Assembly: GCA_002281755.1 (NCBI GenBank)
Contig: NCHB01000010.1
Span: forward strand, 6,644 to 70,643
Direction of reading: 5' to 3'
Source: Sulfurovum sp. 16-42-52
GTDB lineage: Bacteria; Campylobacterota; Campylobacteria; Campylobacterales; Sulfurovaceae
DNA: 64,000 nt
Below are positions 12,383 to 44,804 of the stretch, piece after piece. The first letter of the stretch is position 1. Each line of letters starts with the position of its first letter. The translations under genes and the position numbers were made by a program. A model generated the notes under the pieces. The model did no database searches, was not told where the DNA came from, and saw only the letters and a list, made by a program, of their open reading frames with translations.

Positions 12383-13336
12383 ATGTTTCAAGCGAAAACA
12401 AAAAATCTCAAAAATTTTTCGACATCAGCAGAGCGTTTTGAAGGAGCAAATCTTCTTTGTCCCGGATGCGCCCACTCTATCATTGTCCGTGAAGTATTGA
12501 ATGCAACCAATGATCATTTGATCCTTGGCGCATCAACCGGATGCCTTGAAGTGTGTACCGCCGTTTATCCGCATACTTCATGGGATGCTTCATGGATTCA
12601 TATCGGATTTGAAAATGGTTCCTCAGCCGTAGCAGGAGCTGAAGCGATGTACAAAGTGCTTAAGAACAAAGGGCGACTGAAACAGCCTGATCGCACTCCG
12701 AAGTTTGTCGCGTTCGGTGGAGATGGTGCAACATATGACATCGGTTTTCAGTGGATCTCTGGATGTTTTGAGCGGGGGCACGACATGATGTATGTCTGTT
12801 TGGATAATGAAGTGTATGCAAATACCGGCGGACAACGTTCCTCTTCCACTCCGATCGGTGCGTCGGCATCGACCACTCCTTCAGGACGCATAAGCTATGG
12901 TGAAAAACAAAACAAAAAAGATATGATGGCAATCATGGCAGCGCACGGCGCACCGTATGTGGCACAGGTCGCTCCAAACCAATGGAGGGATATGGTCGCC
13001 AAAATCCAAAAAGGGTTTGCAACCGAGGGTCCTGTTTTTATCAATGCGATGTCTGCCTGTACCACGGAGTGGAAATTTTCCCCCGAAGATACCATTGCTA
13101 TCTCTGATTTGGCGACCGATTCGTTGGTTTTTCCCTTGTATGAGATCATTGACGGAACCAAACTCAATATTACCTACCGCCCCAAAAATGTGATTCCGGT
13201 ACGCGATTACCTCGGTGCACAAGGGCGCTTTAAACATCTTTTCACCAAACAATACGAGTATCTTATCAACGAGTGGCAGGCACGTGTTGATGCAAAATGG
13301 GAACTGCTTCAACGCCGTGAAGAGGCTTGCCTTTAG
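12383..13336 (+). CDS. porB: POR beta subunit (TPP-binding)
   Basis: CPGCAH, GGDGATYDIG, LDNEVYANTGGQ. Confidence 0.95.
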   Translation: MFQAKTKNLKNFSTSAERFEGANLLCPGCAHSIIVREVLNATNDHLILGASTGCLEVCTAVYPHTSWDASWIHIGFENGSSAVAGAEAMYKVLKNKGRLKQPDRTPKFVAFGGDGATYDIGFQWISGCFERGHDMMYVCLDNEVYANTGGQRSSSTPIGASASTTPSGRISYGEKQNKKDMMAIMAAHGAPYVAQVAPNQWRDMVAKIQKGFATEGPVFINAMSACTTEWKFSPEDTIAISDLATDSLVFPLYEIIDGTKLNITYRPKNVIPVRDYLGAQGRFKHLFTKQYEYLINEWQARVDAKWELLQRREEACL

Positions 13337-13450
13337 TCAAATCATTTGAAATGTACTTCAATCACTCTCAAATGATGTCAATTTGACATATATTTAAGAG
13401 TGAAATAAAACTCTTGATATACTTTAGCAATTTAAATAAAAGGCAAAAGT

Positions 13451-14008
13451 ATGATCGTAGGGATAGAAGGTACAGTTGATCGAAAAGAGCCCACTTTTGT
13501 GCATCTTAATGTAAGTGGCATCATCTATGAGGTGCAGGTGTCCATCAACACATCCAGTAACATTGCTGATAAAAAAGTAAAACTGTTTGTCACGCAGGTG
13601 ATTCGTGAAGATGCGCATTTGCTTTTTGGGTTTATGGAGCTGAACGAAAAAAAGATGTTTGATACCGTACTCAAAATAAATGGCGTCGGCCCAAAAGTCG
13701 GTTTAGCCATCTGCTCGACCTTTACACCTGAGACCTTTGCAAAAGTGGTGGCTTCTAAAGATGTGAGTATGCTCAAACGCGTTCCAGGCGTTGGACCTAA
13801 GGCTGCAAGTCGCATATTGGTAGAACTCGCAGACTTTATCGTCGATGGCAATATAGAGAGTGCAAGCTCAGGTGCGATGAGTGATGCGATGATGGCATTG
13901 GAGAGTTTAGGGTTCAAAAAAGATGTCATTCAAAAAGCACTTGTGGGGGCTACTGGTGATACGAGTTCGTTGGTAAAAGAAGGACTCAAACGTTTGCAAC
14001 GGCTCTAA
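13451..14008 (+). CDS. ruvA: Holliday junction branch migration protein RuvA
   Basis: [12 protein letters not shown] and HhH motifs INGVGPK and VPGVGPK. Confidence 0.96.
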
Positions 14009-14017
14009 TTTGAAGCG

Positions 14018-14698
14018 TTAAGCCTGCGTCGCAACCCTGCGTGCTGAAACGAAAAGATTGGCATATTTCCCGTGTGTGATGGGGGAGATGATTATGCCGT
14101 CTTTTTTGGAAGCAGCATGGATGAAGTTGCCATCACCCAAGTAGATACCCACATGAGTGACAGGGATGCCCCGTGTTTTGTCCGTGAGGAAAAAAAGCAG
14201 GTCGCCTTTTTGCAGGTGTGCCTTATCTACGAGTGTGCCTTTTTGTGACTGTGCCCACGCAGTTCGCGGCAGGTTGATATGGTGTTTTTTGTAGAGGTAC
14301 TGTACGTAGCCAGAGCAGTCAAAACCTTCGGGCTTGGTGCCTCCCCAAACATATTTACCACCTTTAAAGTACTTGGCATCTTCTGTTAGTTTTTGTTTGT
14401 CGATGGCAGAAATCTGATAGACTTTTCCTACTTTTGCCGCTTCTTGCTGTGCTTTGGCGATGCGGGTAGCACGCTTGCGCGCTGCTTCAGCCATGCGGGC
14501 TAGATTTTCCGCACGGTGAAGTTCATCATAAATGGCTTGCAGTGAGTATTCGGTAGATTTTTGGTTCAGGTATTCGTTTTGGGAGTGCTGCATATCTTTA
14601 CTGTGATAAACTTTTCCGTTTTTATCGCTAATCGTGAAAAGACTTGCATGTGAAAGCGTAAGTAGGAGTATCAGTACAAAAGCAGTTTTTCGCATCAC
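14018..14698 (-). CDS. Secreted NlpC/P60 (C40) peptidoglycan endopeptidase
   Basis: Signal peptide; YVWGG, FDCSGYV, HVGIYLG, FIHA. Confidence 0.93.
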   Translation of the reverse strand: MMRKTAFVLILLLTLSHASLFTISDKNGKVYHSKDMQHSQNEYLNQKSTEYSLQAIYDELHRAENLARMAEAARKRATRIAKAQQEAAKVGKVYQISAIDKQKLTEDAKYFKGGKYVWGGTKPEGFDCSGYVQYLYKKHHINLPRTAWAQSQKGTLVDKAHLQKGDLLFFLTDKTRGIPVTHVGIYLGDGNFIHAASKKDGIIISPITHGKYANLFVSARRVATQA

Positions 14699-30187: not shown

Positions 30188-30374
30188 TGAGGTTTAACAG
30201 ACAGACATAATTCCCCAAGTGATTAAATATCAATCACTCTCTTGAAACTATTTTGTAACCATTAGGATATTATTTTGTAATATAATTAACAATAAGATGG
30301 TGTATCATTGAAAATGTAGCTGTTTTGGGTAGTGGAAGTAAGTGTTAATGAAATTAAAATCCATAGGAGGATAA

Positions 30375-32882
30375 ATGAAAGCTGTTGTTATGGCAGGTGG
30401 TTTTGGAACTAGAATCCAACCCCTTACTAACTCAAGACCAAAACCAATGTTGCCCGTTGTCAATAAACCGATGATGGAGCATACGATGATGATGCTTAAA
30501 GCGGTGGGGATAAGTGAATTTATTGTGTTGCTTTACTTCAAGCCTGAAATTATCAAAGCTTATTTTGGTGACGGCAGTGATTTGGGTATCAAGATCACCT
30601 ATGTGGTTCCCGATGATGATTATGGTACAGCTGGTGCCGTGAAATTGGCGCAGGAGTATATCGGTGATGAAAATTTTATCATCATCAGCGGAGACCTTGT
30701 GACAGATTTTGATTTTCAGAAAATATTTGACTTTCATGCCCAAAAAGAGTCTAAACTCACGATAACGCTCACTTCGGTCGATAATCCTTTGGAGTTTGGT
30801 GTGGTCATAGCCAACGAAGAAGGAAAGATAGAAAAATTTTTGGAAAAGCCAAGCTGGGGGGAAGTGTTCAGTGACACCATCAACACGGGTATCTATATCC
30901 TCGAACCTGAGATTTTGGAGTATATCCCTAAAAATGAGAACTATGACTTCGGCAAAGACCTTTTCCCAAAACTGATGTCTGAAGGTGTAGGGCTGATGGC
31001 GGGATATGCGCAAGGGTATTGGCGTGATGTGGGCAATCCTGAGAGTTACCGTGATGTGTATGATGATATCCTAACGGGTAAAGTGAAGTTCAACTATGAG
31101 GGTGAAGCGACGCACTATCCTGATGGAGTGGTTTATGCTGAGGAGTCTTATGATTTTGATAAAAGTGTGGAGTTTGTCGGTACGGTAGTATTGGGTAAAA
31201 ATGTCACGCTAAAGAAGGGCGTAAAACTCAACAATGTCGTCATCGGCGATAATGTCACTATCGGAAAAGAGAGCAAGATCCGTAATACCGTGATATGGAA
31301 TGATGTAGAGATACACGCAAAAGCCAAGCTGGATAATTGTGTCATCTGCAATGATAACATCATCGGAAAGAATGTCACTGCAAAAGCAGGGATGATACTG
31401 GCTGAAGGGTGTGAGATCGGTCAGCTGGTTACCATTGAGCAGGATGTGACAATCTGGCCTGACAAAGTGATTGAAGTGGCTTCTATCGTGAGCCATAGTT
31501 TGATTTTAGGCAGCAAATACAAAAATTCGATCTTTGAAAACGGGATGGTGGTCGGTCAGTCCAATGTAGAGCTCTCCTGTGAGATGGCAACCAAACTGGC
31601 TGAAGCTTTTGGTGCCCAGCTTCCTATCGGTTCAATCGTGTTGGTCTCAAGGGACACCCACAAGAGTTCACGGATGCTCAAGCGTGCTTTTCTAGGCGGA
31701 TTGCTCTCTGCAGGGGTCAATGTGATTGACTATCGTGACATTCCCTCATCTGTATTGCGTTGCAGTCTCTCAGCAAACGATCAGTACATCGCAGGGATAC
31801 ATTTTCGCCAAAAAATTGATGATCCTACCAGTACGGTCATCACTTTTTACAATGAGGAAGCACTGCGCATCAACAATGAGGTGGCAAAAAAGGTAGAAAA
31901 GGCATTTTTTAAAGAGACATTCAGACGGGTGGACTATTCCAACATCGGTCAGATTGAAGAATCTGACCACGTCAAAGAGTATCACGGATACAAAGAAGGG
32001 ATGAAGTCTTTACTGAAATCCCACTCTTTTGCCACACTTGAACACCGTGTAGCGGTAGATATGATGCACGGTATGGCATCAGAAGTGTTCCCTGATATCC
32101 TCAATGATATGGGGGTAGAAAACATCATGTTCAATGCCCACCCTGATGAACACCGCCTTGCCAATATCAATGCCCTAGTTAAGCAGTCCAGACAGGATAT
32201 GAGCGCGGTGATTAAAGCACTGAAGCTTGACGGAGGTTTTATGCTCTACCCTTACGGTCAGCGTTTGGATATCGTCTGTGATCAGGGAACGGTGCTGGGT
32301 AAACAGTCTTCTTTGTATGTGGTGTTGTCACTTCTCAATATGGAAGCCAAGCAGCAAGGGGTGAAAAAAAGTGTCTTTTTGCCCACTTGGGCAGCCGATA
32401 TTGTCTATTTTGAAAACCTTGAGATAGAACGGGGTAAATATGTGAACTTTAAAGCGCAGAAGATGAAAGAGTATGATCTTGTGGCTACGGGTGAAGGTAA
32501 TTTTGCCTTTACGGAGTTTGCAACGCACCGTGATTCGATGTATGCGACTTTGAAAATCCTTGAGATGCTCTCAAACCACAAAATGACGCTTTCTCAAATT
32601 ATTACTTCTTTTCCGAAGTTTTACTACAAGACGACAAAAGTAGTCTGTACGCAGGCACTCAAAGGCAAAATGATGCGCAAGTTCCTTGAAGATGCCAAAG
32701 GCAAAGAGTCATCTACACTCGATGGTGTCAAGATATGGTTAGATACCCATGACTGGATTTTGATGATCCCCAATCAGTACAGCGATCATCTCAATCTCTA
32801 CATCCAGGCAGAAAATGAGGGTAAAGGCGAAGCCATCTTGGCGCAATACAGTGCCAAAATCGAAGAATGGTCTAAAGAATAA
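30375..32882 (+). CDS. Sugar-1-phosphate nucleotidyltransferase + hexapeptide repeats + degenerate PGM/PMM fusion (usually annotated mannose-1-P guanylyltransferase)
   Basis: MAGGFGTRIQPLT, KPMLP, FLEKP, YWRDVG; LbH repeats; C-terminal phosphohexomutase fold. Confidence 0.85.
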   Translation: MKAVVMAGGFGTRIQPLTNSRPKPMLPVVNKPMMEHTMMMLKAVGISEFIVLLYFKPEIIKAYFGDGSDLGIKITYVVPDDDYGTAGAVKLAQEYIGDENFIIISGDLVTDFDFQKIFDFHAQKESKLTITLTSVDNPLEFGVVIANEEGKIEKFLEKPSWGEVFSDTINTGIYILEPEILEYIPKNENYDFGKDLFPKLMSEGVGLMAGYAQGYWRDVGNPESYRDVYDDILTGKVKFNYEGEATHYPDGVVYAEESYDFDKSVEFVGTVVLGKNVTLKKGVKLNNVVIGDNVTIGKESKIRNTVIWNDVEIHAKAKLDNCVICNDNIIGKNVTAKAGMILAEGCEIGQLVTIEQDVTIWPDKVIEVASIVSHSLILGSKYKNSIFENGMVVGQSNVELSCEMATKLAEAFGAQLPIGSIVLVSRDTHKSSRMLKRAFLGGLLSAGVNVIDYRDIPSSVLRCSLSANDQYIAGIHFRQKIDDPTSTVITFYNEEALRINNEVAKKVEKAFFKETFRRVDYSNIGQIEESDHVKEYHGYKEGMKSLLKSHSFATLEHRVAVDMMHGMASEVFPDILNDMGVENIMFNAHPDEHRLANINALVKQSRQDMSAVIKALKLDGGFMLYPYGQRLDIVCDQGTVLGKQSSLYVVLSLLNMEAKQQGVKKSVFLPTWAADIVYFENLEIERGKYVNFKAQKMKEYDLVATGEGNFAFTEFATHRDSMYATLKILEMLSNHKMTLSQIITSFPKFYYKTTKVVCTQALKGKMMRKFLEDAKGKESSTLDGVKIWLDTHDWILMIPNQYSDHLNLYIQAENEGKGEAILAQYSAKIEEWSKE

Positions 32883-32884
32883 GT

Positions 32885-34873
32885 ATGAAGCCTTCACTCA
32901 ATCTCTGTTTTTTCTGGCATATGCATCAGCCTGATTATCGTAACAGAGAGGGGGTGATGAGTATGCCGTGGGTATTTTTGCATGCGATTAAAGATTATTA
33001 TGAAATGCCTTGGCTGTTGAGCCGTCACAAAGGACTCAAAGCGACATTCAACATTACCGCTCCTTTGATAGAACAACTCAACCTCTATAGAGATCCTCTC
33101 AAAAATGACTATTTTCTTTCATTGTGGGCAAAAGAACCCTCTTTATTGTCGCAAGAAGAGCGGATATGGCTGATTAAAACCTGTAAATCAACCCAGTATC
33201 ATCAAGAAATTCTTAGCGATGCAGAACTGATAGACTTTGAAGTGCTTTTTATGCTGGCGTGGTGCGGTAACTATCTGCGTCAAAACCATACACTGGTAAA
33301 AACCCTGTTTCAAAAAGAAAAAGGGTTTACTTGGAGCGATAAAGCACAGCTGCTTCAAGCTTTATGTGATTTTATAGAGACCATCTTGCCTTTTTATGCC
33401 CGTTTGCAAGAAGAAGGGGTGGTTTCTGTCTCCACTACACCTTACAACCACCCCATCTTACCCCTGTTACTGGACAGTTTTAATGCAAAACGCGCCAACG
33501 AACACACAACACTGCCCGATAATCCGCTCTCTTTAAGAGAAGATGCCATTGAACAGGTCGAACGCTCAATAACACTCTACAAAAAGACTTTCGGGAAAGC
33601 TCCAACGGGGTTCTGGCCAGCTGAGGGTGCGGTGGATGAAGAGAGTGTAGAAATCTATAAAGAACGAGGCATAGGCTGGATAGCCACGGATGAGGCGATA
33701 CTGTTTCGTTCACTGGATGATGATACACGAGCCAATCTGTACAAACCCTATGTCTTTAACGGTATGACAATTAGTTTTAGGGATCACGGGCTTTCTGATT
33801 TGATAGGGTTTAATTATCGTTTTAAAACAGGACAGGATGCCAGTGCACATTTTATGCAAGTGGTGGAGCCTATAGCACATTCGCAAGAGAATGCCACCCT
33901 TTTTGTCATACTCGATGGTGAAAATGCTTGGGAGTTTTTTGAAAACAATGCCTATGATTTTTTTACTGCATTGTATGAACTTATCTCGGTCACTGATTGG
34001 TGCACAACAGTCACGATGGATGAAGTCTCACGCATGAAACATAAAGGCTATTTGGAACAACTCAGTGCCGGAAGCTGGATACATGGAAACTTTGATACAT
34101 GGTCGGGACATAGCGAAAAAAACCGTGCGTGGGAACTGATCTATCAGACCAAGCGTGATGTGGAAAATTATGACGGGCTTGTATCACAGGAAGTAGCTGA
34201 AGAAATCAGGTTTCATTTTCTAGCCTCTGAGTGCAGCGACTGGTTTTGGTGGTATGGCGATGATCATGTCACAGAGTTTGGGCTAGAGTTTGACACGCTG
34301 TTTAGAGAGCATCTTATCGCTATTTATCATCTGCTTCATATGCAGCCGCCATCAGACCTTTTTATCCCGATTATGGCGCATAAGAGTGCTGTATCCTTTT
34401 TGCTGAAACCTCAAGCACCTATATCACCATTGATAGATGGCAAAAACAGTTCTTTTTTTGAATGGCTGGGAGCAGGAAGCGTGGATGAAAGTAAACTCTA
34501 CTCGACCATGGACAGGGTACGCGGTCCTGTGGAGAAGATCTATTACGGGCATAACGACGTGACACTTTTTTTGGCTTTTGAAGGGCAGATAGCCGCACTT
34601 GAGAAGCAAGGGCAGTATCTTGAGATCATCATAGAACAGACAGGGGAACATCTTCGTTTTTCCATGGACAAGCCTTATGAAGACAAGGATACGACATTCA
34701 TCATAGGCGAGCGTATGGAATTGGCACTCTCAAGAAGACATTTCAAAGAACACAGCTCAGTGCATTTGCGTTTTGAGATAGTACGGGGTAATGAGATCGT
34801 CCAAACCATGCCAGGGTATGGCGCACTCCATGTGGATATGGACGAAAGTTATGCCAACAATTGGTTTGTTTAA
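32885..34873 (+). CDS. GH57 glycoside hydrolase (amylopullulanase-like)
   Basis: WHMHQP, HPILPLL, GFWPAEGAV, ILDGENAWE, ECSDWFWW. Confidence 0.9.
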   Translation: MKPSLNLCFFWHMHQPDYRNREGVMSMPWVFLHAIKDYYEMPWLLSRHKGLKATFNITAPLIEQLNLYRDPLKNDYFLSLWAKEPSLLSQEERIWLIKTCKSTQYHQEILSDAELIDFEVLFMLAWCGNYLRQNHTLVKTLFQKEKGFTWSDKAQLLQALCDFIETILPFYARLQEEGVVSVSTTPYNHPILPLLLDSFNAKRANEHTTLPDNPLSLREDAIEQVERSITLYKKTFGKAPTGFWPAEGAVDEESVEIYKERGIGWIATDEAILFRSLDDDTRANLYKPYVFNGMTISFRDHGLSDLIGFNYRFKTGQDASAHFMQVVEPIAHSQENATLFVILDGENAWEFFENNAYDFFTALYELISVTDWCTTVTMDEVSRMKHKGYLEQLSAGSWIHGNFDTWSGHSEKNRAWELIYQTKRDVENYDGLVSQEVAEEIRFHFLASECSDWFWWYGDDHVTEFGLEFDTLFREHLIAIYHLLHMQPPSDLFIPIMAHKSAVSFLLKPQAPISPLIDGKNSSFFEWLGAGSVDESKLYSTMDRVRGPVEKIYYGHNDVTLFLAFEGQIAALEKQGQYLEIIIEQTGEHLRFSMDKPYEDKDTTFIIGERMELALSRRHFKEHSSVHLRFEIVRGNEIVQTMPGYGALHVDMDESYANNWFV

Positions 34874-34906: not shown

Positions 34907-36955
34907 ATGAAGGCTACAACAAAATTACTCTTTGGGATACATATGCACCAGCCTGTAGATAACTTTGACTGGGTGATACAACAGGGCGTTGAGGTATGTT
35001 ACGGACCATTTTTTGAAGTGATGAGCCGGTATCCGGAGTTTCGATTTTCGGTGCACTGCAGCGGTTGGCTGATGGAGCAGATACAAAAACACCATCATAA
35101 ACTCTATAAACAGATACACACTTTGGCAAAACAAGGCAGTATAGAGTTTTTCTCTGCAGGCTATTATGAGCCGATACTGAGTGTCATCCCTTCACAAGAC
35201 CGAGTTGAGCAGATAGAGTTGCTAAACGAGAGCATCGCTTCAGATTTTCATCAAAAACCCAAAGGCTTGTGGCTAACCGAGCGCGTTTGGGAGTCCTCGC
35301 TGATACCTGATCTTCATAAGGCAGGCATCAAGTACACGGTTATGGATGATTATCATTTTCAGTGTGCAGGATTTGATGAGGCGATTTTGGACGGGTATTT
35401 TATGACTGAGGAGGGCGGCAAAACGCTTGGGCTTTTTCCTATCAGTAAAAAACTGCGTTATGCCATCCCTTTTTTAAAGGTAGAGGCAGCGATTAAGGCG
35501 ATCAAATCCTTTGATGCAAAAGAGAGTTCTGCAGCGATTATCTTTGATGACGCTGAGAAGTTCGGGATGTGGCCAGGAACGTATGAATGGGTTTATGCAA
35601 AAGGCTGGCTTGAGCGTTTTGTACAGGCCGTCCTTGCTGATGAATCCATAGAAACGATGCATTACGGAGCGTATTTTGAGCAGGAGCGTACCCGTGGCAT
35701 CGCCTACCTTCCTAATGTCTCTTATGCCGAGATGGGTGAATGGAGTCTGAGAGCAGACGACACACTAAAACTTGAAGCACTCAAAAAAGAGATGGGGCAC
35801 GAACGCTATGAGCGTGAGGGTGTCAAATTTTTAAAAGGTGGCATCTGGAAAAACTTTTTGGTCAAATACGAAGAGAGTAACCGTATCCATAAGCGCACTC
35901 TGGAGCTTTCAAAAGTGCGAGAACATGTCGATAAACCTAAGTTTGATACAGCCCTCTACAAAGCACAAACCAATGACGCACTCTGGCATGGGGTTTTTGG
36001 GGGACTCTACCTGCCCAACTTGCGTGACAATGCTTACACCTACATCATCGAAGCAGAAAACATCCGTTACGGCCGCAAAAACCGCATCGAGTCTGACCAC
36101 AATGAGCTTGATGGGTATGAGAAGATTAAGATGGTGATTCCAAAATATATTTTCCGTTTTGATGGCGCACAGGGTGGACAACTGGTGGAGTTTGATAACC
36201 GAAAAGCCTTGTTTAACTGGCAAAATACCTTAACAAGACGCAAAGAAGCGTATCATCAGCGACTCCTTGAAGAGACACCCCAGAGTGATGAAGAGAATCT
36301 ACCAAAAGAAGAGGGCATCGATACGATTCACCATGCGATGGTTGAAGTGGATGAAAAGTTGCGCAATGCGATTATCTATGACTGGTATCTTAAAAACTCT
36401 TTTGTAGACCACATCAGTGATGCGCGTTTTAATGCGGACAATTTTTATCACTGCAATTTTGCGGAATATGGTGATTTTGCCAATCAGCCTTTTGAAGTGA
36501 CTCAGGGTAAACAACAGGTGACCTTCGTGCGTAAGGGCGGGTTGTATGTGCCGCATAAGATACCTGCGCGACTGGAAAAAACCTACAGACCACAGTCAAA
36601 TGGATTTGATTTTGACATCACGCTTTCTACGCAATCAGAGGGGGATTTTAGCTATATTTTAGAGCACAATTTTCATTTTGCCGACTATGATACCGTCACA
36701 CTCAATGGTGAAACGCTAAGTGAAAAAGGCATCTTTGAAGGTGCATCCATGCTTGAAATCAGCGATGGACACCTTGGGCAGAAGATTTGTATCACTCTTG
36801 ATAAAGCCTGCGATATTTACTATTTTCAGCTCAAAACGCTCTCACAGAGCGAACACGGTTTTGATCTGAGTGTGCAGGGGATCAGCTTGGCTATGGTGCT
36901 GCCTTTTAGTGGTGCATTGAGCCTTAAAGGCTTTTTGGAGGTGGTGCATGTCTAG
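34907..36955 (+). CDS. GH57 4-alpha-glucanotransferase / alpha-amylase
   Basis: HMHQP, YYEPIL, WLTERVWE, FDDAEKFG, QTNDALWHGVFGGLY. Confidence 0.9.
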   Translation: MKATTKLLFGIHMHQPVDNFDWVIQQGVEVCYGPFFEVMSRYPEFRFSVHCSGWLMEQIQKHHHKLYKQIHTLAKQGSIEFFSAGYYEPILSVIPSQDRVEQIELLNESIASDFHQKPKGLWLTERVWESSLIPDLHKAGIKYTVMDDYHFQCAGFDEAILDGYFMTEEGGKTLGLFPISKKLRYAIPFLKVEAAIKAIKSFDAKESSAAIIFDDAEKFGMWPGTYEWVYAKGWLERFVQAVLADESIETMHYGAYFEQERTRGIAYLPNVSYAEMGEWSLRADDTLKLEALKKEMGHERYEREGVKFLKGGIWKNFLVKYEESNRIHKRTLELSKVREHVDKPKFDTALYKAQTNDALWHGVFGGLYLPNLRDNAYTYIIEAENIRYGRKNRIESDHNELDGYEKIKMVIPKYIFRFDGAQGGQLVEFDNRKALFNWQNTLTRRKEAYHQRLLEETPQSDEENLPKEEGIDTIHHAMVEVDEKLRNAIIYDWYLKNSFVDHISDARFNADNFYHCNFAEYGDFANQPFEVTQGKQQVTFVRKGGLYVPHKIPARLEKTYRPQSNGFDFDITLSTQSEGDFSYILEHNFHFADYDTVTLNGETLSEKGIFEGASMLEISDGHLGQKICITLDKACDIYYFQLKTLSQSEHGFDLSVQGISLAMVLPFSGALSLKGFLEVVHV

Positions 36956-37976
36956 CATTCGGTATGACCGTATCCATGACACCCATGTGATTATCGCGCC
37001 TGAACGATTGTATCGTCCTGATTGCAGTTTTGGTGCGGATGAGCTTCAAAATGTTGAACCAACTTGTGCTTTTTGTGAAGGCAACGAATCGATGACACCG
37101 CCTGAAATTTTTGCCACGAGGAATCCCCAAACCCTTGCCAACACAGCAGGATGGCAGACCCGTGTCGTCCCCAATCTATATAAAGCGGTACAGATAGAAG
37201 CCCCTTATGCGCATCACTATGGTTTGTTTGAATACCACGAAGGGTTTGGCGCGCATGAAGTCATCATCGACACACCAGAACACTTGACTTCCATGACACA
37301 ATGGAACGCGCAGACAGCCGTACAGTGGCTCAAAACACTGCGTGCCAGAGTGCATGATCTGCGCCGTGATCAGCGTATGGCGTATATCTCTGTGTTTAAA
37401 AATGAAGGTATACTTGCAGGGGCAACACAGACACATTCGCATACACAGATGATCGGATTGCCGTTTGTGCCCAATGTTGCCAGAGAAAACTATAGAAGAA
37501 GTTACGAACACTATAAACAGCATGGCATATCCCTCTTGCAGTCCTGCGTTCAACATGAAGAAGAGCAACAGGAGCGCGTGATTGCCAAACATGGGGATTT
37601 TACTGCTTTTTGTCCCTTTGCCAGTGCGTATGCCTTTGAAGTGATGATCACCTCCCAAAAAGCACTGGGGCAGATCGATACCCTAAGTGATGAAAGTATC
37701 AACACACTGGCACCTCTGCTTCTTGCTACGCTTCGTGTTCTCAAAGCTCAACTGGTCTGTTTTGCTTTCAATCTTGTCATCACAACCCCACCTCTGCAAG
37801 AAGGCAGTGCGGATTATGGTATGCTTTCTTGTGTGGATGAAGCCTGTCGTTTTGCGGTGCGCATCATGCCACGCATCTACAAGCACGGGGGTTTTGAAGT
37901 AGGTACGGGTGTGTATATCAATCCTGTTTTGCCTGAAGTAGCCGCCAAATTATTGAGAGAGGGCATCGATGTCTAA
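36948..37976 (+). CDS. GalT/HIT-family nucleotidyltransferase (possible ADP-glucose phosphorylase)
   Basis: CAFCEGNE, VVPNLY, HEVIID, GATQTHSHTQ (HxHxQ), FEVGTG..INPV.PE. Confidence 0.85.
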   Translation: MSSIRYDRIHDTHVIIAPERLYRPDCSFGADELQNVEPTCAFCEGNESMTPPEIFATRNPQTLANTAGWQTRVVPNLYKAVQIEAPYAHHYGLFEYHEGFGAHEVIIDTPEHLTSMTQWNAQTAVQWLKTLRARVHDLRRDQRMAYISVFKNEGILAGATQTHSHTQMIGLPFVPNVARENYRRSYEHYKQHGISLLQSCVQHEEEQQERVIAKHGDFTAFCPFASAYAFEVMITSQKALGQIDTLSDESINTLAPLLLATLRVLKAQLVCFAFNLVITTPPLQEGSADYGMLSCVDEACRFAVRIMPRIYKHGGFEVGTGVYINPVLPEVAAKLLREGIDV

Positions 37977-39408
37977 ACCACGCTTGTTATTTTGTGCCAG
38001 TGAAGTCTATCCTTTTGCCAAAAGCGGAGGCTTGGCGGATGTTGCACACAGTTTACCTAGAGCACTGTGCAGTACGTATGCCGTTGAGGTGGTACTGCCT
38101 TTATATCAGTGTATTGATCGTGAAGCATTTGGCATCAAACCCTTGGGTGAGGAGTATGCCGTACAGATGGGTGGCATCTCTTACCCTGTGATGCTGTATG
38201 GTTGTACCTATGAGGGTGTGGCGTACCGTTTTATCTACTCACCTTTACTGTGTGACAGAACATTTCTCTACGGCCCACCAGATAGTGGGTATGAAGACAA
38301 TGCCTTGAGGTACGGACTTTTTAGCTATGCTGTTGTAACCCTCCTCAAAAAAGAAGCCTATAGCATTGTGCACCTCAATGACTGGCAGAGTGCTTTGGTT
38401 GCTTTGTTGATAAAAGAAGAGACCATTATCAAAACCAAGTCGGTATTTACGATTCACAATCTTGCTTATCAGGGTGTATTTGCACATCAAGCACTGCTTG
38501 AGTTGGGTTTGGATGGGCGATATTTTTCGATGGAAAGCATGGAGTTTTACGGACAGATCAATTTTATGAAAGCGGGTATCGCGTATGCAGACCGCATCAC
38601 AACCGTCAGTCCGACCTACGCCAAAGAGATCTTGACTCCTGAGTTTGGGTGTGGATTGGAAGGTTTCTTACACTTTCATCGCCATAAACTTTCGGGCATT
38701 GTCAACGGCATCGATACCAAACATTTTTCACCCTCGCAAGATAAAACGCTTGTTTTTCCGTATGTAGATCTAAGAGGAAAAGCGGTCAACAAAAGAGCCT
38801 ATCTCAAACAAACAGCACTCAAAGAGGCAAAAAAACCGCTCTTTATCTTTGTCGGACGTTTTGCCTCGCAAAAAGGCTTGGATTTATTGATAGAGATTTT
38901 ACCCGACTTGGTAAAAAGAGAGTGCACTATTGCATTTTTGGGAGAAGGGGAAAGCAAGTATCATCAGGCATTAGAAGCGCTTGCTAAGACGTATGATACT
39001 GTACATGTAACATGCGGGTATGATGAGGCTTTGTCACACCAAATGTACGCAGCGGCCGATTTTTTCTTGATGCCCTCGCTGTTTGAGCCGTGTGGATTAG
39101 CTCAGATGATAGCCATGCGCTACGGCGTGCTACCCATCGTGCATCATGTCGGTGGCTTGGCAGATACGGTACAGGATTATACCTCTTTTACTGCCCAATC
39201 TGCCAAAGGCTATGGTGTCGTATTTTCACAACCCAAAGCAGAGACTTTTTTAGCTGCTTTGGATGACGCTTTGGCATTGTATACCAACAAAAGACGCTAC
39301 AACAAGGTAGCAAAACACAATATGCGCTGTGATTTTTCCTGGCAAGAGAGTGCGAAGTCTTACCTTGAAATCTATGAAACACTTAGAGCGCAGAGCAGTC
39401 ATGCATAA
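37969..39408 (+). CDS. glgA: Glycogen synthase (GT5), copy 1
   Basis: FAKSGGLADV, HLNDWQ, TIHNLAYQG, PSLFEPCGL. Confidence 0.93.
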   Translation: MSKPRLLFCASEVYPFAKSGGLADVAHSLPRALCSTYAVEVVLPLYQCIDREAFGIKPLGEEYAVQMGGISYPVMLYGCTYEGVAYRFIYSPLLCDRTFLYGPPDSGYEDNALRYGLFSYAVVTLLKKEAYSIVHLNDWQSALVALLIKEETIIKTKSVFTIHNLAYQGVFAHQALLELGLDGRYFSMESMEFYGQINFMKAGIAYADRITTVSPTYAKEILTPEFGCGLEGFLHFHRHKLSGIVNGIDTKHFSPSQDKTLVFPYVDLRGKAVNKRAYLKQTALKEAKKPLFIFVGRFASQKGLDLLIEILPDLVKRECTIAFLGEGESKYHQALEALAKTYDTVHVTCGYDEALSHQMYAAADFFLMPSLFEPCGLAQMIAMRYGVLPIVHHVGGLADTVQDYTSFTAQSAKGYGVVFSQPKAETFLAALDDALALYTNKRRYNKVAKHNMRCDFSWQESAKSYLEIYETLRAQSSHA

Positions 39409-40897
39409 CTTAAGTATACTCATCGCAGCATCAGAAGTGGTTCCTTTTGCCAAGAGTGGCGGATTGGCTGATGTTGCAGGTGCATTGCCCAAAGCATTGG
39501 CTGCGTTGGGGCATGATGTACGTGTGGTGATGCCCTGCTATGCGAGTATTGACAAAGCACTCTATGGGCTGAAGCCTTTGGAAGGTGCATTAGGTGTGCC
39601 TATGGGTGTGATGGGCGAAGCGTGGGCGGGGGTTTATGAGAGCGTACTTCCGCAGAGTACTGTGAAGATTTACTTTATAGAACATCAGGGATTTTTCGGG
39701 CGAAAAGGACTCTATGATGAAGAGGGGCAAGGGTATGCAGACAATGACAATCGATTTATTTTTTTCTCCAGAGCCGTGATGCAACTGGCAAAGAAGCTGC
39801 GTTTTAGACCCGATGTCATACATGTCAATGACTGGCATACTGCGCTCATTCCCGTGTTGCTCAACACCGTGTACGCGAATGATGCCGATTTTAAAGGGAC
39901 AGGCACACTGCTGAGTCTGCATAACCTTCAGCATCAGGGCAAGTTCTACAAAGGTGCGATGGATGTGCTGGGTGTGGGGTGGGAACATTTTAATGCTTCT
40001 GAACTCGAAGAGTATGACGGTGTGAACTTTCTCAAAGGTGGTATCGTGCATGCAGATGCCTTTAATGCAGTGAGTCAAAAATACGCACAGGAGATCTGCA
40101 CCCCTGAGTTTGGCTGGGGGCTTGACGGTCTGATACGAGACAAGTCTTATAAACTCTACGGCATTGTAAACGGAGTTGATTATGAGGAGTGGAGTCCTGC
40201 TGTGGACACATTCATACCTGCTCGGTTTGACAGTGATGATTTAAGCGGTAAAGCAGTGTGTAAAGAAGCCTTGCAGCATCGCTTTGGTCTTGCGGTAAAG
40301 AGTGATGTGCCACTGATAGGTTTTGTGGGACGGCTGGCAGAACAAAAAGGCATCGCACTTATCGCAACCATCATAGAAAAACTGTTGCAGCTTGAGTTGC
40401 AGATTGTTTTGCTTGGTGCAGGTGAGAAATGGGCAGAACATTTTTTTTCCCAGCTGGCGTCACGGTACCCCTCCAAATTTGCCTGTTACATAGGCTATGA
40501 CAATGAACTTGCCCATACTATTGAGGCAGGAAGTGATCTCTTTTTGATGCCCTCACTGTTCGAGCCTTGTGGACTCAATCAGATTTACAGTCTGCGTTAC
40601 GGTACAGTTCCCATCGTGCGTGCCACGGGAGGGCTGGATGATACGATTGAGAATTATAACAGTGCAAACCGTAGCGGAACAGGGTTTAAGTTTTACGATG
40701 CGACCCCTGAAGCATTACAGGCTACAGTAGAGTGGGCGGTTGATACCTGGTACCATGACAAAGAGGGATTTAAGAAGTTACGCGACAACGGTATGTTGCA
40801 GCGTTTTAGTTGGCATGAGGCAGCCATAGCCTATGAAAACCTTTACCGTCACATCGTAGCCGGTCGTCATGGTAGCAAAGAGCAGGAAAGCAGATGA
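39401..40897 (+). CDS. glgA: Glycogen synthase (GT5), copy 2
   Basis: FAKSGGLADV, HVNDWH, LHNLQHQG, PSLFEPCGLNQ; start moved to 39401. Confidence 0.93.
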   Translation: MHNLSILIAASEVVPFAKSGGLADVAGALPKALAALGHDVRVVMPCYASIDKALYGLKPLEGALGVPMGVMGEAWAGVYESVLPQSTVKIYFIEHQGFFGRKGLYDEEGQGYADNDNRFIFFSRAVMQLAKKLRFRPDVIHVNDWHTALIPVLLNTVYANDADFKGTGTLLSLHNLQHQGKFYKGAMDVLGVGWEHFNASELEEYDGVNFLKGGIVHADAFNAVSQKYAQEICTPEFGWGLDGLIRDKSYKLYGIVNGVDYEEWSPAVDTFIPARFDSDDLSGKAVCKEALQHRFGLAVKSDVPLIGFVGRLAEQKGIALIATIIEKLLQLELQIVLLGAGEKWAEHFFSQLASRYPSKFACYIGYDNELAHTIEAGSDLFLMPSLFEPCGLNQIYSLRYGTVPIVRATGGLDDTIENYNSANRSGTGFKFYDATPEALQATVEWAVDTWYHDKEGFKKLRDNGMLQRFSWHEAAIAYENLYRHIVAGRHGSKEQESR

Positions 40898-42819
40898 GTC
40901 ATAGCATGTTGTATGAAGTCTCTACACTGAGTGAAATGGACATCTACCTTTTTAAACAAGGCAGCCATGCCAAGCTGTATGAAAAACTCGGTGCCCATAA
41001 GATGGTGTTGCAAATGAAACAGGGAGTCCACTTTGCGGTGTGGGCGCCCAATGCACAGACAGTGAGTGTGCGGGGGGATTTTAACGCGTATGATGCACTC
41101 ACACATCCACTCAAACAAAGAGAAGACGATTCGGGTATCTGGGAAGGTTTTATCGAAGGTGTGCAAGTGGGGCTGACTTACAAGTATCATATTGTTTCCA
41201 ACTATCATGGCATCGTGCATGACAAAAGTGATCCTTTTGCTTTTTACAGCGAAGCAGCACCTAAGTCTGCGTCGCGTGTATGGAGTCTTGAGAGCTATGG
41301 GTGGCAAGATGCAGCATGGATGAAAAAACGGCATCAACACAATGCCCATGATGCGCCAGTGAGCGTCTATGAGATGCATCTTGGCTCGTGGAAGAGAAAA
41401 GTTGAAGAGAACAACCGCTCCCTAAGCTACTCTGAACTGGCGGTTGAACTGCTTGCTTATCTCAAAATGATGAACTATACCCATGTTGAGTTTATGCCTT
41501 TGACTGAGTACCCTTTTGATGGTTCGTGGGGTTATCAGGTTGTGGGGTATTTTTCAGCTACGGCTCGTTTTGGAGAGCCTGAAGCGCTGATGTATCTGAT
41601 TGATATCTTGCATCAAAATAACATCGGTGTCATTATGGACTGGGTACCGTCACATTTTGCAGTAGATATGCATGGTCTTGTGAACTTTGACGGCACAGCA
41701 CTCTATGAGCATGCAGACCCCCAAAGAGGGTTTCATCCCGAGTGGGGGAGTTTTATATTTAATTACGGGCGTAATGAAGTCCGCTCTTTTCTCATCTCCT
41801 CAGCGATGTTTTGGCTTGAGAAATACCATGTTGACGGTATCCGTGTTGATGCCGTTGCATCGATGTTGTACCTAAACTATGCGCGTAAAGACGGGGAGTG
41901 GACACCCAACATCTATGGGGGTGATGAAAATCTTGAAGCGGTCGCTTTTTTGCGTAAGCTCAACGAGAGTGTGTATGCTGCATTCCCTGACATCATGATG
42001 ATAGCTGAAGAGTCTACGGCGTGGCCTATGGTGACACGCCCTACAAGCGTTGGAGGGCTCGGGTTTGGGTTTAAGTGGAACATGGGCTGGATGCATGACA
42101 CACTCAAATACATGAGTTATGACCCCATCGACAGACAACATCATCAGCAACAGCTCACCTTCAGTCTCTGGTATGCCTTTGATGAGCAGTTTATGCTGCC
42201 ACTCAGTCATGATGAGGTGGTACACATGAAAGGCTCACTTATCAATAAAATGCCCGGAGACACCAAACAAAAGTTTGCCAATCTACGCGCAATGTATGCG
42301 TATATGATGGCACATCCGGGTAAAAAACTGCTTTTTATGGGTGGTGAGATCGCCCAGTATGCCGAATGGAACTTTGAAAAAAGTCTTGACTGGCATCTGT
42401 TAGACGACCCCTTGCATGCAAACCTACAAACGATGTTAAGTGACCTTAACGCACTCTACCGAACTGAGCGTGCCTTGTACCTGTACGATGATAAACACGC
42501 AGGGTATGAGTGGATAGACAACACAGACGCTGCACATAACATCATCAGTTTTATGCGCAAAAGTGATGATGCCGATGAAACGGTTTATGTGGTGTGCAAC
42601 TTTGCCGACAAGACAAGAGCGTCTTACCTCTTGGGCGTACCATATGAAGGCAACTATGTTGAGATATTTAACTCCCAATCAACACGCTATGAAGGCTGGA
42701 ACATCAGCAATTCCACACCCCTAAAAGCCCAAAAAGTGGTTACGCACGGACGAGACTATTCTTTAGAATTGACTTTACCACCGTTGGGGGTGATTTATCT
42801 GAAGAGGGTGGTTGGGTAG
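40894..42819 (+). CDS. glgB: 1,4-alpha-glucan branching enzyme (GH13)
   Basis: FAVWAPNA, SWGYQ, DGIRVDAVASM, AEEST, PLSHDEVVH. Confidence 0.96.
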   Translation: MSHSMLYEVSTLSEMDIYLFKQGSHAKLYEKLGAHKMVLQMKQGVHFAVWAPNAQTVSVRGDFNAYDALTHPLKQREDDSGIWEGFIEGVQVGLTYKYHIVSNYHGIVHDKSDPFAFYSEAAPKSASRVWSLESYGWQDAAWMKKRHQHNAHDAPVSVYEMHLGSWKRKVEENNRSLSYSELAVELLAYLKMMNYTHVEFMPLTEYPFDGSWGYQVVGYFSATARFGEPEALMYLIDILHQNNIGVIMDWVPSHFAVDMHGLVNFDGTALYEHADPQRGFHPEWGSFIFNYGRNEVRSFLISSAMFWLEKYHVDGIRVDAVASMLYLNYARKDGEWTPNIYGGDENLEAVAFLRKLNESVYAAFPDIMMIAEESTAWPMVTRPTSVGGLGFGFKWNMGWMHDTLKYMSYDPIDRQHHQQQLTFSLWYAFDEQFMLPLSHDEVVHMKGSLINKMPGDTKQKFANLRAMYAYMMAHPGKKLLFMGGEIAQYAEWNFEKSLDWHLLDDPLHANLQTMLSDLNALYRTERALYLYDDKHAGYEWIDNTDAAHNIISFMRKSDDADETVYVVCNFADKTRASYLLGVPYEGNYVEIFNSQSTRYEGWNISNSTPLKAQKVVTHGRDYSLELTLPPLGVIYLKRVVG

Positions 42820-43169: not shown

Positions 43170-44804
43170 TTAAAAAAGTGTAGACACTATCTCTTGTGCC
43201 TCATCCTGTATCTGCTTCAGATGCACTTCGTCGATGAAGCTTTCAGCGTAGATCTTGTAGATGGGTTCTGTGCCTGAGGGGCGTAGGGCGAACCAGCCGT
43301 TTTTGGCTACGACTTTAAGCCCACCGATGGCTGCACCATTTCCGGGTGCATGGGTTAAGACAGCCTCTATGGCTTCACCTGCAAGCATGGTTGCTTTGAT
43401 GTCAAGGGCGTTAAGGTTTTTAAGTTTTTTAGCCTGTTCAAGTGTGGCAGGTGCATCGATGCGGGCATAGATGGGTGCACCGAACTTTTGGGTAAGTTCT
43501 AGGTAGTGCTCACCCGGGTCACGGCTTGTAGTTGCTAGTATCTCAGCAGCCAGAAGAGTCATGATGATACCGTCTTTATCGGTACTCCACACGCTTCCGT
43601 CTTTACGCAAGAAACTAGCCCCCGCACTCTCTTCACCCCCGAAAAAGACAGTACCGTTGGTTAGCCCCTCAACAAACCACTTGAACCCAACAGGCACTTC
43701 TATGACTTTTTTTTCTAGTGATGCAGCCACACGGTCTATCATCGAGCTGCTTACAAGGGTTTTTCCTATCCCAAGATCAGATTTCCATAGTGGGCGGTTT
43801 TGGGCTAGGTAGTTGATGGCAACACTGAGGTAATGGTTGGGGTTCATGAGTCCCACACTTTTGGTCACGATGCCGTGACGGTCAAAGTCGGTGTCATTTC
43901 CAAAAGCGATGTCATACTTCTCTTTCATCGCCACCAGTCCCGCCATGGCATACGAAGAAGAGCAGTCCATGCGTATCTTGCCGTCTTTGTCGCAGTGCAT
44001 GAACGAAAAGGTTGAGTCAAGTGTATCGTTGAAAACCTCCATGTTGAGACCATAACGCTCTTTGATGGCAGTGTAATACGCCATACCCGAACCGCCCATC
44101 GCGTCTGCTCCGATAAAGATACCTGACTTAGCAATGGCTTCCATGTCGATGACATTTTCCAAATCATCGACATAAGGGGTTACATAGTCATACTCTACAA
44201 GATACTCTGAACTCAATGCCTCATTCAGCGTGATTTTTTTGACTTCTTGGAGTCCATTTTCCATTAGTGCATTGGCACGCTTTTCTATCCAGTCTGTGAC
44301 ATCGGTATCGGCGGGCCCACCATGGGGTGGGTTGTACTTGAAACCTCCATCTGCAGGCGGGTTATGGGATGGGGTGATAACGATACCGTCACACAGAACA
44401 GCAGTATCTTTATTGTGTGTCAAAATGGCATGGGAGATAACCGGGGTAGGGGTGTAAGCTAAATCTTTGGCGATGTGCACAGTCACCCCATTGGCGCAGA
44501 GTACTTGCAAAGCAGAGAGCTGTGCAGGATAAGAAAGTGCATGGGTATCCATCCCCATAAATAAAATCCCTGTGATGCCAGCTTCTTTTCGGTAATCACA
44601 GACCGCTTGTGTGACTGCTAGTATGTGGTTCTCGTTAAAACTGCCTAGAAGCGAAGAGCCACGGTGACCTGAAGTACCAAACGCGATGCGCTGTGTAGGG
44701 TTTTTGGTATCGGGTGTTTTGGTGTAGTATTCGCTGATGAGCCTAGGAATATTAACAAGAATTGATTTGGGTGCCAGCTTGCCAGCGTGAGGATGAAGCG
44801 CCAT
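43170..44804 (-). CDS. pgm: Phosphoglucomutase
   Basis: [16 protein letters not shown] (catalytic Ser), [22 protein letters not shown]. Confidence 0.96.

Follow-up and report, generated by a model that had tools for sequence, protein, structure and literature searches.

A candidate NDP-glucose pyrophosphorylase fused to a predicted inactive phosphohexomutase fold heads a glycogen gene set in Sulfurovum

We analysed a gene of Sulfurovum sp. 16-42-52 that lies at positions 30,375 to 32,882 of a 64,000-nucleotide stretch of DNA (NCBI GenBank assembly GCA_002281755.1, contig NCHB01000010.1, positions 6,644 to 70,643 of the forward strand; this whole stretch is referred to here as the window). The gene encodes a single protein, hereafter the fusion protein, in which a sugar-1-phosphate nucleotidylyltransferase (NTase) domain is followed by a left-handed β-helix (LbH) domain and by a module with a phosphohexomutase fold. 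We favour, with modest confidence, the reading that this protein is a nucleoside diphosphate (NDP)-glucose pyrophosphorylase for glycogen, of the NTase plus LbH class that resembles GDP-mannose pyrophosphorylase (GMPP) and CugP, permanently fused to a non-catalytic phosphohexomutase fold. In the scheme that we propose, a separate phosphoglucomutase (Pgm) would supply glucose 1-phosphate (Glc-1-P), the fusion protein's N-terminal domain would convert it with a nucleoside triphosphate (most likely ATP) to NDP-glucose and pyrophosphate, and two GlgA synthases of family GT5, with GlgB and GH57 enzymes, would turn NDP-glucose into glycogen. The fusion protein would fill the role of GlgC in this cluster, its dead mutase module would be a structural, oligomerisation or regulatory part, and a neighbouring HIT enzyme may trim or buffer ADP-glucose, being less likely to be its maker. 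The name that the family carries in KEGG (K16881), bifunctional GDP-mannose pyrophosphorylase/phosphomannomutase, is likely a mis-annotation, as the sequence contradicts both activities.

As judged from its sequence, the C-terminal module is unable to transfer phosphate, having lost all four signature loops of the fold. The fold itself is recognisable: Pfam placed PGM_PMM domains I (residues 394–517), II (539–637) and III (694–747) above cut-off, domain IV being undetected by Pfam, and residues 391–822 gave full-length matches to the archaeal-type phosphohexomutases 9du5, 1wqa and 2f7l (E-values 1e-31 to 1e-21). The phosphoserine loop TASHNP of active mutases aligns with RQKIDD, so that the catalytic serine is replaced by Lys480. 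An earlier note on this DNA had named AGIHFR as the substitute; its coordinates (31791–31808) are right, but in the alignment to active mutases AGIHFR pairs with the strand GGAVIT, which precedes the phosphoserine loop. The same note had YPYGQR (32247–32264) in place of the metal loop, and this agrees with our alignment to the DGDxDR of 9du5, 1wqa and 2f7l.

All four loops are non-canonical in 76 of 76 orthologues, yet they are fixed in forms of their own (Y-P-x-G-Q-R, I-P-D-Q-Y and T-x-[DE]-G-N-F); residue 480 is K, D, S or N across these orthologues, a His-Asn pair is found in none, and the sugar loop retains a single Glu (or Asp). Among 150 representatives of the wider family, three keep one canonical mutase loop each and none has SHNP or RxSGTE; we therefore rejected an active mutase in distant family members, where isolated single loops occur in those 3/150 only. 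Judged on these alignments, degeneracy of the mutase is an ancient, family-wide trait. The predicted inactivity of the mutase part thus extends through the orthologues to essentially the whole family, and the separate intact pgm that the note had pointed to is present, with all four of its signature motifs (Table 1). On orthologue pairs with unsaturated synonymous sites, the ratio of nonsynonymous to synonymous substitution rates (dN/dS) was 0.034–0.048 for the mutase half and 0.020–0.035 for the NTase half. Because dN/dS is low, with purifying selection comparable to that on the NTase half, we conclude that the dead module has a selected function.

A structural, oligomerisation or regulatory role is the simplest way to read that function. 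It is rather unlikely, in our estimate, that the dead domain is specifically an allosteric sensor, adjusting the NTase in response to a bound sugar phosphate, as had been suggested. The module is as strongly conserved as the catalytic half, and its replaced loops are fixed in new forms, but a structural or oligomerisation role accounts equally well for this conservation. The phosphate-binding loop has lost its Arg, Ser and Thr and gained Asp, so that the canonical loop is now hydrophobic and acidic, and the metal site is gone; against this, the fusion family has basic motifs of its own (SRMLKR, FRR and CPWxxKGxxMR), and regulatory pseudo-subunits such as GMPPA and GlgD provide a precedent. The sensor idea therefore loses its canonical phosphate site, whereas the family's basic motifs leave some binding of a metabolite by the dead module possible.

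The N-terminal half tells a different story, as its invariant motifs, together with the strongest selection in the protein, argue for catalysis. GGFGTRIQPLT, PKPMLP, SGD, EKP and YWRDVG are unchanged in the 76 orthologues, and residues 1–349 match the solved structures 8yre, 7x8j, 8x7s, 7whr and 7d72 (E-values 1e-48 to 1e-40); none of the PDB matches spans both the NTase and the mutase halves. The stretch from EKP to LFPKL, EKPSWGEVFSDTINTGIYILEPEILEYIPKNENYDFGKDLFPKL, is near-identical to that of the UDP-glucose enzyme 8x7s and unlike that of all four GDP-mannose enzymes compared, which have a two-residue deletion that shortens the stretch between EKP and INAG, and S-I-E-K-E as a sugar-phosphate motif. 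In an alignment with E. coli GlgC, the sequence of which we checked as identical to 5l6s, E157/K158, Y174, D191/F192 and W216/D218 fall on GlgC E194/K195, Y216, D239/F240 and W274/D276. We take these GlgC residues, with S212, to be the Glc-1-P site defined in the mutagenesis literature; seven of the eight are retained, and S212 is replaced by Asn170. Across 137 family representatives the D-F motif is also well kept (D in 134, F in 130). Glc-1-P is, on these aligned residues, probably the sugar substrate.

The nucleotide is harder to assign. Arabidopsis VTC1 hydrogen-bonds guanine N1 through an acid that lies five residues ahead of the Gly in GTAG (PMC9168903). The corresponding position of the fusion protein is Pro79, which is invariant in its clade. 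Enzymes of the RmlA/GlmU type recognise uracil or thymine through a Gln, and in our alignment the fusion protein has no Gln at that position. We tentatively put forward ATP as the nucleotide and give this choice somewhat less than an even chance; besides the loss of the guanine-binding acid, it draws on YWRDVG, which the fusion protein has in common with GlgC, and on the GlgA and HIT genes described below. The warning that annotation as a mannose-1-phosphate (Man-1-P) guanylyltransferase can mislead seems likely to apply here, since the sugar-1-phosphate region resembles that of the Glc-1-P enzymes 8x7s and GlgC and the guanine-binding acid is missing.

The genomic setting points to glycogen. 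The fusion gene leads a run of seven closely spaced glycogen genes on the plus strand, with gaps of 2–33 bp or overlaps between them, and the order fusion, GH57, GH57, GalT-like, GlgA, GlgA, GlgB is kept in 32 of the 34 Campylobacterota loci that have at least 6 kb of flank on both sides. That the gene heads a glycogen gene set thus proved correct, and the cluster has no GlgC. In the 64-kb window the fusion protein alone resembles GlgC (27% identity, E-value 7e-17), with no other GlgC-like gene present, and a gene like E. coli GlgC lay within 10 kb of the fusion gene in 0 of 231 loci (a count of neighbourhoods only). A core of fusion, GH57, GalT-like and GlgA genes occurs also in Geobacteraceae/Desulfuromonadales, a Dongiaceae metagenome-assembled genome (MAG), WOR-3, Coprothermobacterota and an Eisenbacteria MAG. 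Both GlgAs pass TIGR02095, the ADP-glucose-type model. The product of the HIT gene matches 1z84 (At5g18200) over its full length (E-value 2.4e-40, vs. 1e-13 for E. coli GalT), and At5g18200 (1Z84/2H39) is the Arabidopsis ADP-glucose phosphorylase, crystallised with ADP-glucose; such a partner supports ADP-glucose as a metabolite here, yet it also offers a rival source of it. No mannose-related genes surround the fusion gene in the glycogen cluster. We consider it more likely than not that the fusion protein serves glycogen synthesis.

Several observations weigh against our reading. The ATP-site loop of GlgC, W-Y114-x-G-T-A-D-A-V, is not reproduced: the fusion protein has D-D-Y-G-T-A-G-A-V, with no Trp and with the Tyr one position off. 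Among NCBIfam models the best match is NF052502 (man1P_GTase_Rv, of the ManB Rv3264c type) at 254.1 bits against a cut-off of 440, TIGR02091 (GlgC) gives 139.6 bits against 424.9, and the remaining GlgC models are far under their cut-offs too; the profiles rank ManB/GMPP (254 bits) above GlgC (140 bits), with neither reaching its cut-off. Since these scores lie nearer to GMPP/CugP, the likeness to the two-domain layout of GlgC, on which the earlier note had drawn, is generic only, although both domains are indeed present. Nor can the nucleotide be read from the context, because the GT5 synthases of some organisms also take UDP- or GDP-glucose, and because a 'GlgC-like' enzyme from archaea, expected to yield ADP- or UDP-glucose, makes GDP-glucose. 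A structure prediction for the full protein was poor (mean pLDDT 58.6, predicted TM-score (pTM) 0.37, from an alignment of close homologues only). Outside Campylobacterota, 22 of 28 type A members (the clade of the window protein, defined below) do not adjoin glycogen genes, and some Campylobacterota carry fusion genes that lie apart from the glycogen cluster (loci L033, L035, L044 and L059). Finally, we found no description of the fusion in the literature, a 2024 Chem Rev survey of alpha-glucan enzymes having neither such an architecture nor Campylobacterota glycogen, and we found no enzyme assay for any member of the family.

The copies outside the cluster differ among themselves. In a Sulfurimonas crateris MAG, L035 comes in addition to the copy within the glycogen cluster (L062), and L033 is the lone fusion copy of a Helicobacteraceae MAG. 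L044 and L059, both of one Sulfurovaceae MAG, are each followed by genes for a 520-residue kinase-like protein, a GalT-like protein and a small ROK-like kinase, the kinase labels having been assigned by eye.

The strongest alternative for the catalytic half is an NDP-glucose pyrophosphorylase that makes UDP-glucose, as CugP does, or GDP-glucose, and so feeds promiscuous GT5 synthases or other glucans. We judge this rather unlikely. The sugar-site region of the fusion protein is near-identical to that of 8x7s, which scores 167 bits against 170 bits for the GMPPs in the structure matches, and stand-alone paralogues of the fusion exist outside glycogen clusters. Among archaea, moreover, GT5 synthases work with UDP-, ADP- or GDP-glucose as donor, and the 'GlgC-like' pyrophosphorylase of Haloarcula makes GDP-glucose. 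What tells against either product is that the clade has lost the guanine-binding acid and has no Gln at the uracil/thymine position, that the HIT partner is nearest to ADP-glucose phosphorylase and not to GalT, and that both GlgAs score as ADP-glucose type.

Much less probable, indeed very unlikely in our view, is that the HIT enzyme makes ADP-glucose by running in reverse (ADP + Glc-1-P to ADP-glucose + phosphate), the fusion protein then being a regulator or scaffold or the maker of another nucleotide sugar. The HIT protein has an intact HxHxQ nucleophile motif and CxxC, lies nearest to ADP-glucose phosphorylase and accompanies the fusion across phyla, but many family members have no HIT neighbour, and the NTase motifs of the fusion protein do not vary and experience stronger selection than the rest of it. 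The equilibrium of the phosphorylase at cellular phosphate favours ADP + Glc-1-P and so opposes the formation of ADP-glucose. It is scarcely credible that the annotation is correct and that the protein makes GDP-mannose as a bifunctional Man-1-P guanylyltransferase/phosphomannomutase (K16881), a name found in JGI and some NCBI records and in keeping with its best NCBIfam match (man1P_GTase_Rv) and best PDB matches (GDP-mannose pyrophosphorylases), because all four mutase loops are gone, the match falls far below its cut-off (254 vs. 440 bits), the guanine-binding acid and SIEKE are absent and the glycogen cluster has no mannose-related genes.

The fusion protein belongs to a large and old family. 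Full-length relatives at 63–86% identity occur in about 265 species genomes, nearly all of them Campylobacterota (Sulfurovum, Sulfurimonas, Sulfuricurvum, Arcobacter and Sulfurospirillum among the genera), and when 1.84 billion representative proteins were searched, 150 clusters of some 830 residues came up that share this architecture, the lowest identity being about 28%. Given these relatives, chance is excluded as the source of the fused architecture. The wider family extends to Bacteroidota/Ignavibacteriota, Desulfobacterota-like lineages, Eremiobacterota, Firmicutes, Cyanobacteria, Chloroflexota, Actinomycetota and others.

Two sequence types can be told apart within it. Type A, which includes the window protein, combines [P/A/S]-x-x-D-[Y/F/L/M]-GTAG with Y-W-[R/K]-D; type B combines E-[E/D]-x-P-L-GTAG, with Glu at the position of the VTC1 guanine-binding acid, with Y-W-[C/S/T/E/Q]-D. 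The two active-site loops co-vary almost perfectly: of 125 type A loci, 122 have W-R/K-D, against 0 of 95 for type B. Type A forms a clade in neighbour-joining trees of both the NTase plus LbH half (built after the diagnostic loops had been removed) and the mutase half alone, from which it follows that the fusion predates the split and that the halves co-evolved.

We also asked whether linkage to glycogen genes marks the whole family and rejected this, since 2 of 55 type B loci show it and, outside Campylobacterota, 6 of 28 type A loci; it is chiefly a feature of type A in Campylobacterota and Geobacteraceae. In Firmicutes, type B genes are commonly preceded by a GT4 glycosyltransferase gene (as at L084, 8807–9979), the best specific match of which is a Corynebacterium-type glycogen synthase model, under cut-off; in Fictibacillus (L119, 7203–10001) this GT4 forms one protein with a GH57 branching enzyme (GH57 + BE_C). 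We count these neighbours as a broader tie of the family to alpha-glucan. In several distant lineages a mutase-like gene lies directly 3' of the fusion gene (L172, L099, L160, L185, L202 and L226); of these we looked closely at L172 alone, where the stand-alone phosphohexomutase (12649–14133) is fully intact. A bolder proposal, which we regard as doubtful, would be that the whole family are NDP-glucose pyrophosphorylases with an ancient pseudo-mutase regulatory module, type A being the missing first committed glycogen enzyme of lineages without GlgC (Campylobacterota, Geobacteraceae and others) and the HIT enzyme setting or buffering the ADP-glucose pool.

Table 1. Features of the fusion gene and its surroundings in the window (strand and basis as recorded; residue numbers refer to the fusion protein).
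Feature	Position	Strand	Basis or remark
Upstream gap, AT-rich, 187 bp	30188..30374	+	Sequence read
Inverted repeat TGATTAAATATCAATCA in upstream gap	30211-30230	+	Shared with closest relative L001
Ribosome-binding site AGGAGG	30364-30369	+	Sequence read
Fusion coding sequence, 835 residues: NTase, LbH, pseudo-phosphohexomutase	30375..32882	+	Open reading frame (ORF) list, Pfam
Sugar-1-phosphate nucleotidylyltransferase domain, predicted active, residues 1-233	30375..31073	+	PF00483 NTP_transferase, residues 2-233, E-value 8e-58
G-rich NTP-binding loop GGFGTRIQPLT, residues 8-18	30396..30428	+	Invariant in orthologues
Base-recognition loop P79-D-D-D-Y-G-T-A-G-A-V89	30609..30641	+	Alignment; diagnostic of type A
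D191-F192-G-K194-D, aligned to D239-F240-G-K-D of E. coli GlgC	30945..30959	+	Alignment
Y215-W-R-D-V-G220, same residues as YWRDVG in E. coli GlgC	31017..31034	+	Alignment
LbH domain, residues 252-354	31128..31436	+	PF25084, PF00132
Pseudo-phosphohexomutase module, residues 392-835	31548..32879	+	Pfam, alignment to 9du5 and 1wqa
Phosphoserine loop, TASHNP to R478-Q-K480-I-D-D483	31806..31823	+	Alignment with three active mutases
Metal loop, DGDxDR to YPYGQR; Y625, P626, Q629 conserved in clade	32247..32264	+	Alignment, orthologues
Sugar loop, GGEENGG to TGE--GN (TGEGNF; two-residue deletion)	32487..32504	+	Alignment, orthologues
Domain-4 motif C758-x4-K-G-x2-M-R768; family consensus CPWxxKGxxMR	32646..32678	+	Absent from active mutases
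Phosphate loop, RASGTEP (RxSGTEP) to IPNQYSD; clade consensus I-P-D-Q-Y	32766..32786	+	Alignment, orthologues
GH57 protein a	32885..34873	+	Starts 2 bp past fusion stop codon
GH57 amylase/4-alpha-glucanotransferase-type protein b	34907..36955	+	Pfam
GalT-family HIT enzyme (HSHTQ, CxxC)	36948..37976	+	Closest to At5g18200
GlgA copy 1 (GT5 glycogen synthase)	37969..39408	+	TIGR02095, 510 bits
GlgA copy 2 (GT5 glycogen synthase)	39401..40897	+	TIGR02095, 550 bits
GlgB, GH13 branching enzyme	40894..42819	+	NF003811, 935 bits
Stand-alone intact Pgm	43170..44804	-	Pfam domains I-IV; TPSHNP, DTDFDR, GEESAG, RPSGTEP
GH15 glucoamylase-type protein with 'phosphorylase b kinase C-terminal' domain, 984 residues	45001-47955		Domain annotation

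Upstream of the fusion gene, the inverted repeat TGATTAAATATCAATCA is a possible operator site; comparison of the gap with relatives gave no conserved element besides the ribosome-binding site and this repeat, which recurs in L001. An Rfam search of the gap returned 0 family matches, and a scan for promoters and terminators gave matches no more than the shuffled expectation. The start of GlgA copy 2 is probably the ATG at 39401, the listed GTG at 39329 being wrong, as the TIGR02095 match begins at residue 28–29 of the listed ORF. Most relatives retain both of the tandem GT5 GlgA paralogues; L009 (18961–19869) and about 15 other Campylobacterota loci have a ROK-family sugar kinase gene in between, which the window lacks. 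The HIT gene co-occurs with the fusion gene and GlgA across several phyla.

At 33196–33199, inside the GH57 gene 32885–34873, contigs of the public runs X7 and X9 have 42 extra in-frame bases, and orthologues of GH57 protein a are about 13 residues longer than the window copy, from which we infer that the window copy has an in-frame deletion or is an assembly variant. Among the public sequencing runs checked for RNA-seq, the locus was found only in metagenome DNA contigs. The GH15-type gene is followed by genes for glucokinase, glucose-6-phosphate dehydrogenase, a member of the 6-phosphogluconate/dihydroxy-acid dehydratase family and Pgi, and no glycogen phosphorylase is among the annotated window genes; together these suggest hydrolytic breakdown of glycogen into an Entner-Doudoroff-type route. 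The relative L041 has a phosphorylase-like gene nearby.

If our reading is true, glycogen synthesis in Geobacteraceae and in the abundant sulfur-oxidising Campylobacterota would no longer lack a counterpart of GlgC, and a widespread annotation that wrongly ascribes to these genomes the making of GDP-mannose and an extra mutase would be corrected, in a family, filed as a bifunctional GDP-mannose enzyme, that spans hundreds to thousands of species. It would also provide a clear example of a mutase that became joined to its successor in the pathway, lost catalysis long ago and has been under strong selection since, and the co-varying pair of loops that tells type A from type B offers a candidate code by which enzymes of this class choose their nucleotide.

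Compared with known systems, the fusion protein is like GlgC (E. coli, 5l6s) in its NTase plus LbH layout, in its presumed place at the first committed step of a GlgA/GlgB cluster and in sharing EKP, D-F-G-K-D and YWRDVG; it differs in having 27% identity, no WYRGTADAV loop, none of the GlgC insertions and a 445-residue pseudo-mutase module. Over residues 1–349 its best match is to the GDP-mannose pyrophosphorylases (VTC1 8yre/7x8j, GMPPB 7d72 and 7whr; E-value about 1e-48), unlike which it has neither the guanine-binding acid nor SIEKE, has Y-D-F-G-K-D, reads W-R-D where they read W-M-D and carries two extra residues after EKP. With the UDP-glucose pyrophosphorylase 8x7s, which we take to be a cyanobacterial CugP-type enzyme, it shares a near-identical sugar-1-phosphate region (INTGIYI.EPE...YIP.N..YD.G..LFPKL) and the usual annotation of that enzyme type as a Man-1-P guanylyltransferase; 8x7s differs in carrying extra residues ahead of its base loop, in reading D-I-G-S-Q where the fusion protein reads D-F-G-K-D and E-W-I-D where it reads Y-W-R-D, and in having no mutase module. 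The C-terminal half is collinear with the archaeal-type phosphohexomutases 9du5, 1wqa and 2f7l, with the same domain order and an alignment that reaches residue 443 of the 456 of 9du5, but all four of its catalytic and ligand loops are replaced. Inactive partners kept for regulation or structure are familiar in GMPPA with GMPPB, GlgD with GlgC, eIF2B gamma/epsilon and PGM5/aciculin (a non-catalytic PGM), and the PDB matches of the fusion NTase include GMPPA and eIF2B; unlike in GMPPA, GlgD and eIF2B, the dead module here derives from the preceding enzyme of the pathway, the mutase, and is covalently fused. Held against K16881, the protein has the layout of NTase, LbH and mutase in about 830 residues and lacks the sequence determinants of both named activities. 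Falling below the GlgC and ManB cut-offs and without the base-binding determinants of either, the fusion protein probably functions like GlgC and CugP while being a member of neither group.

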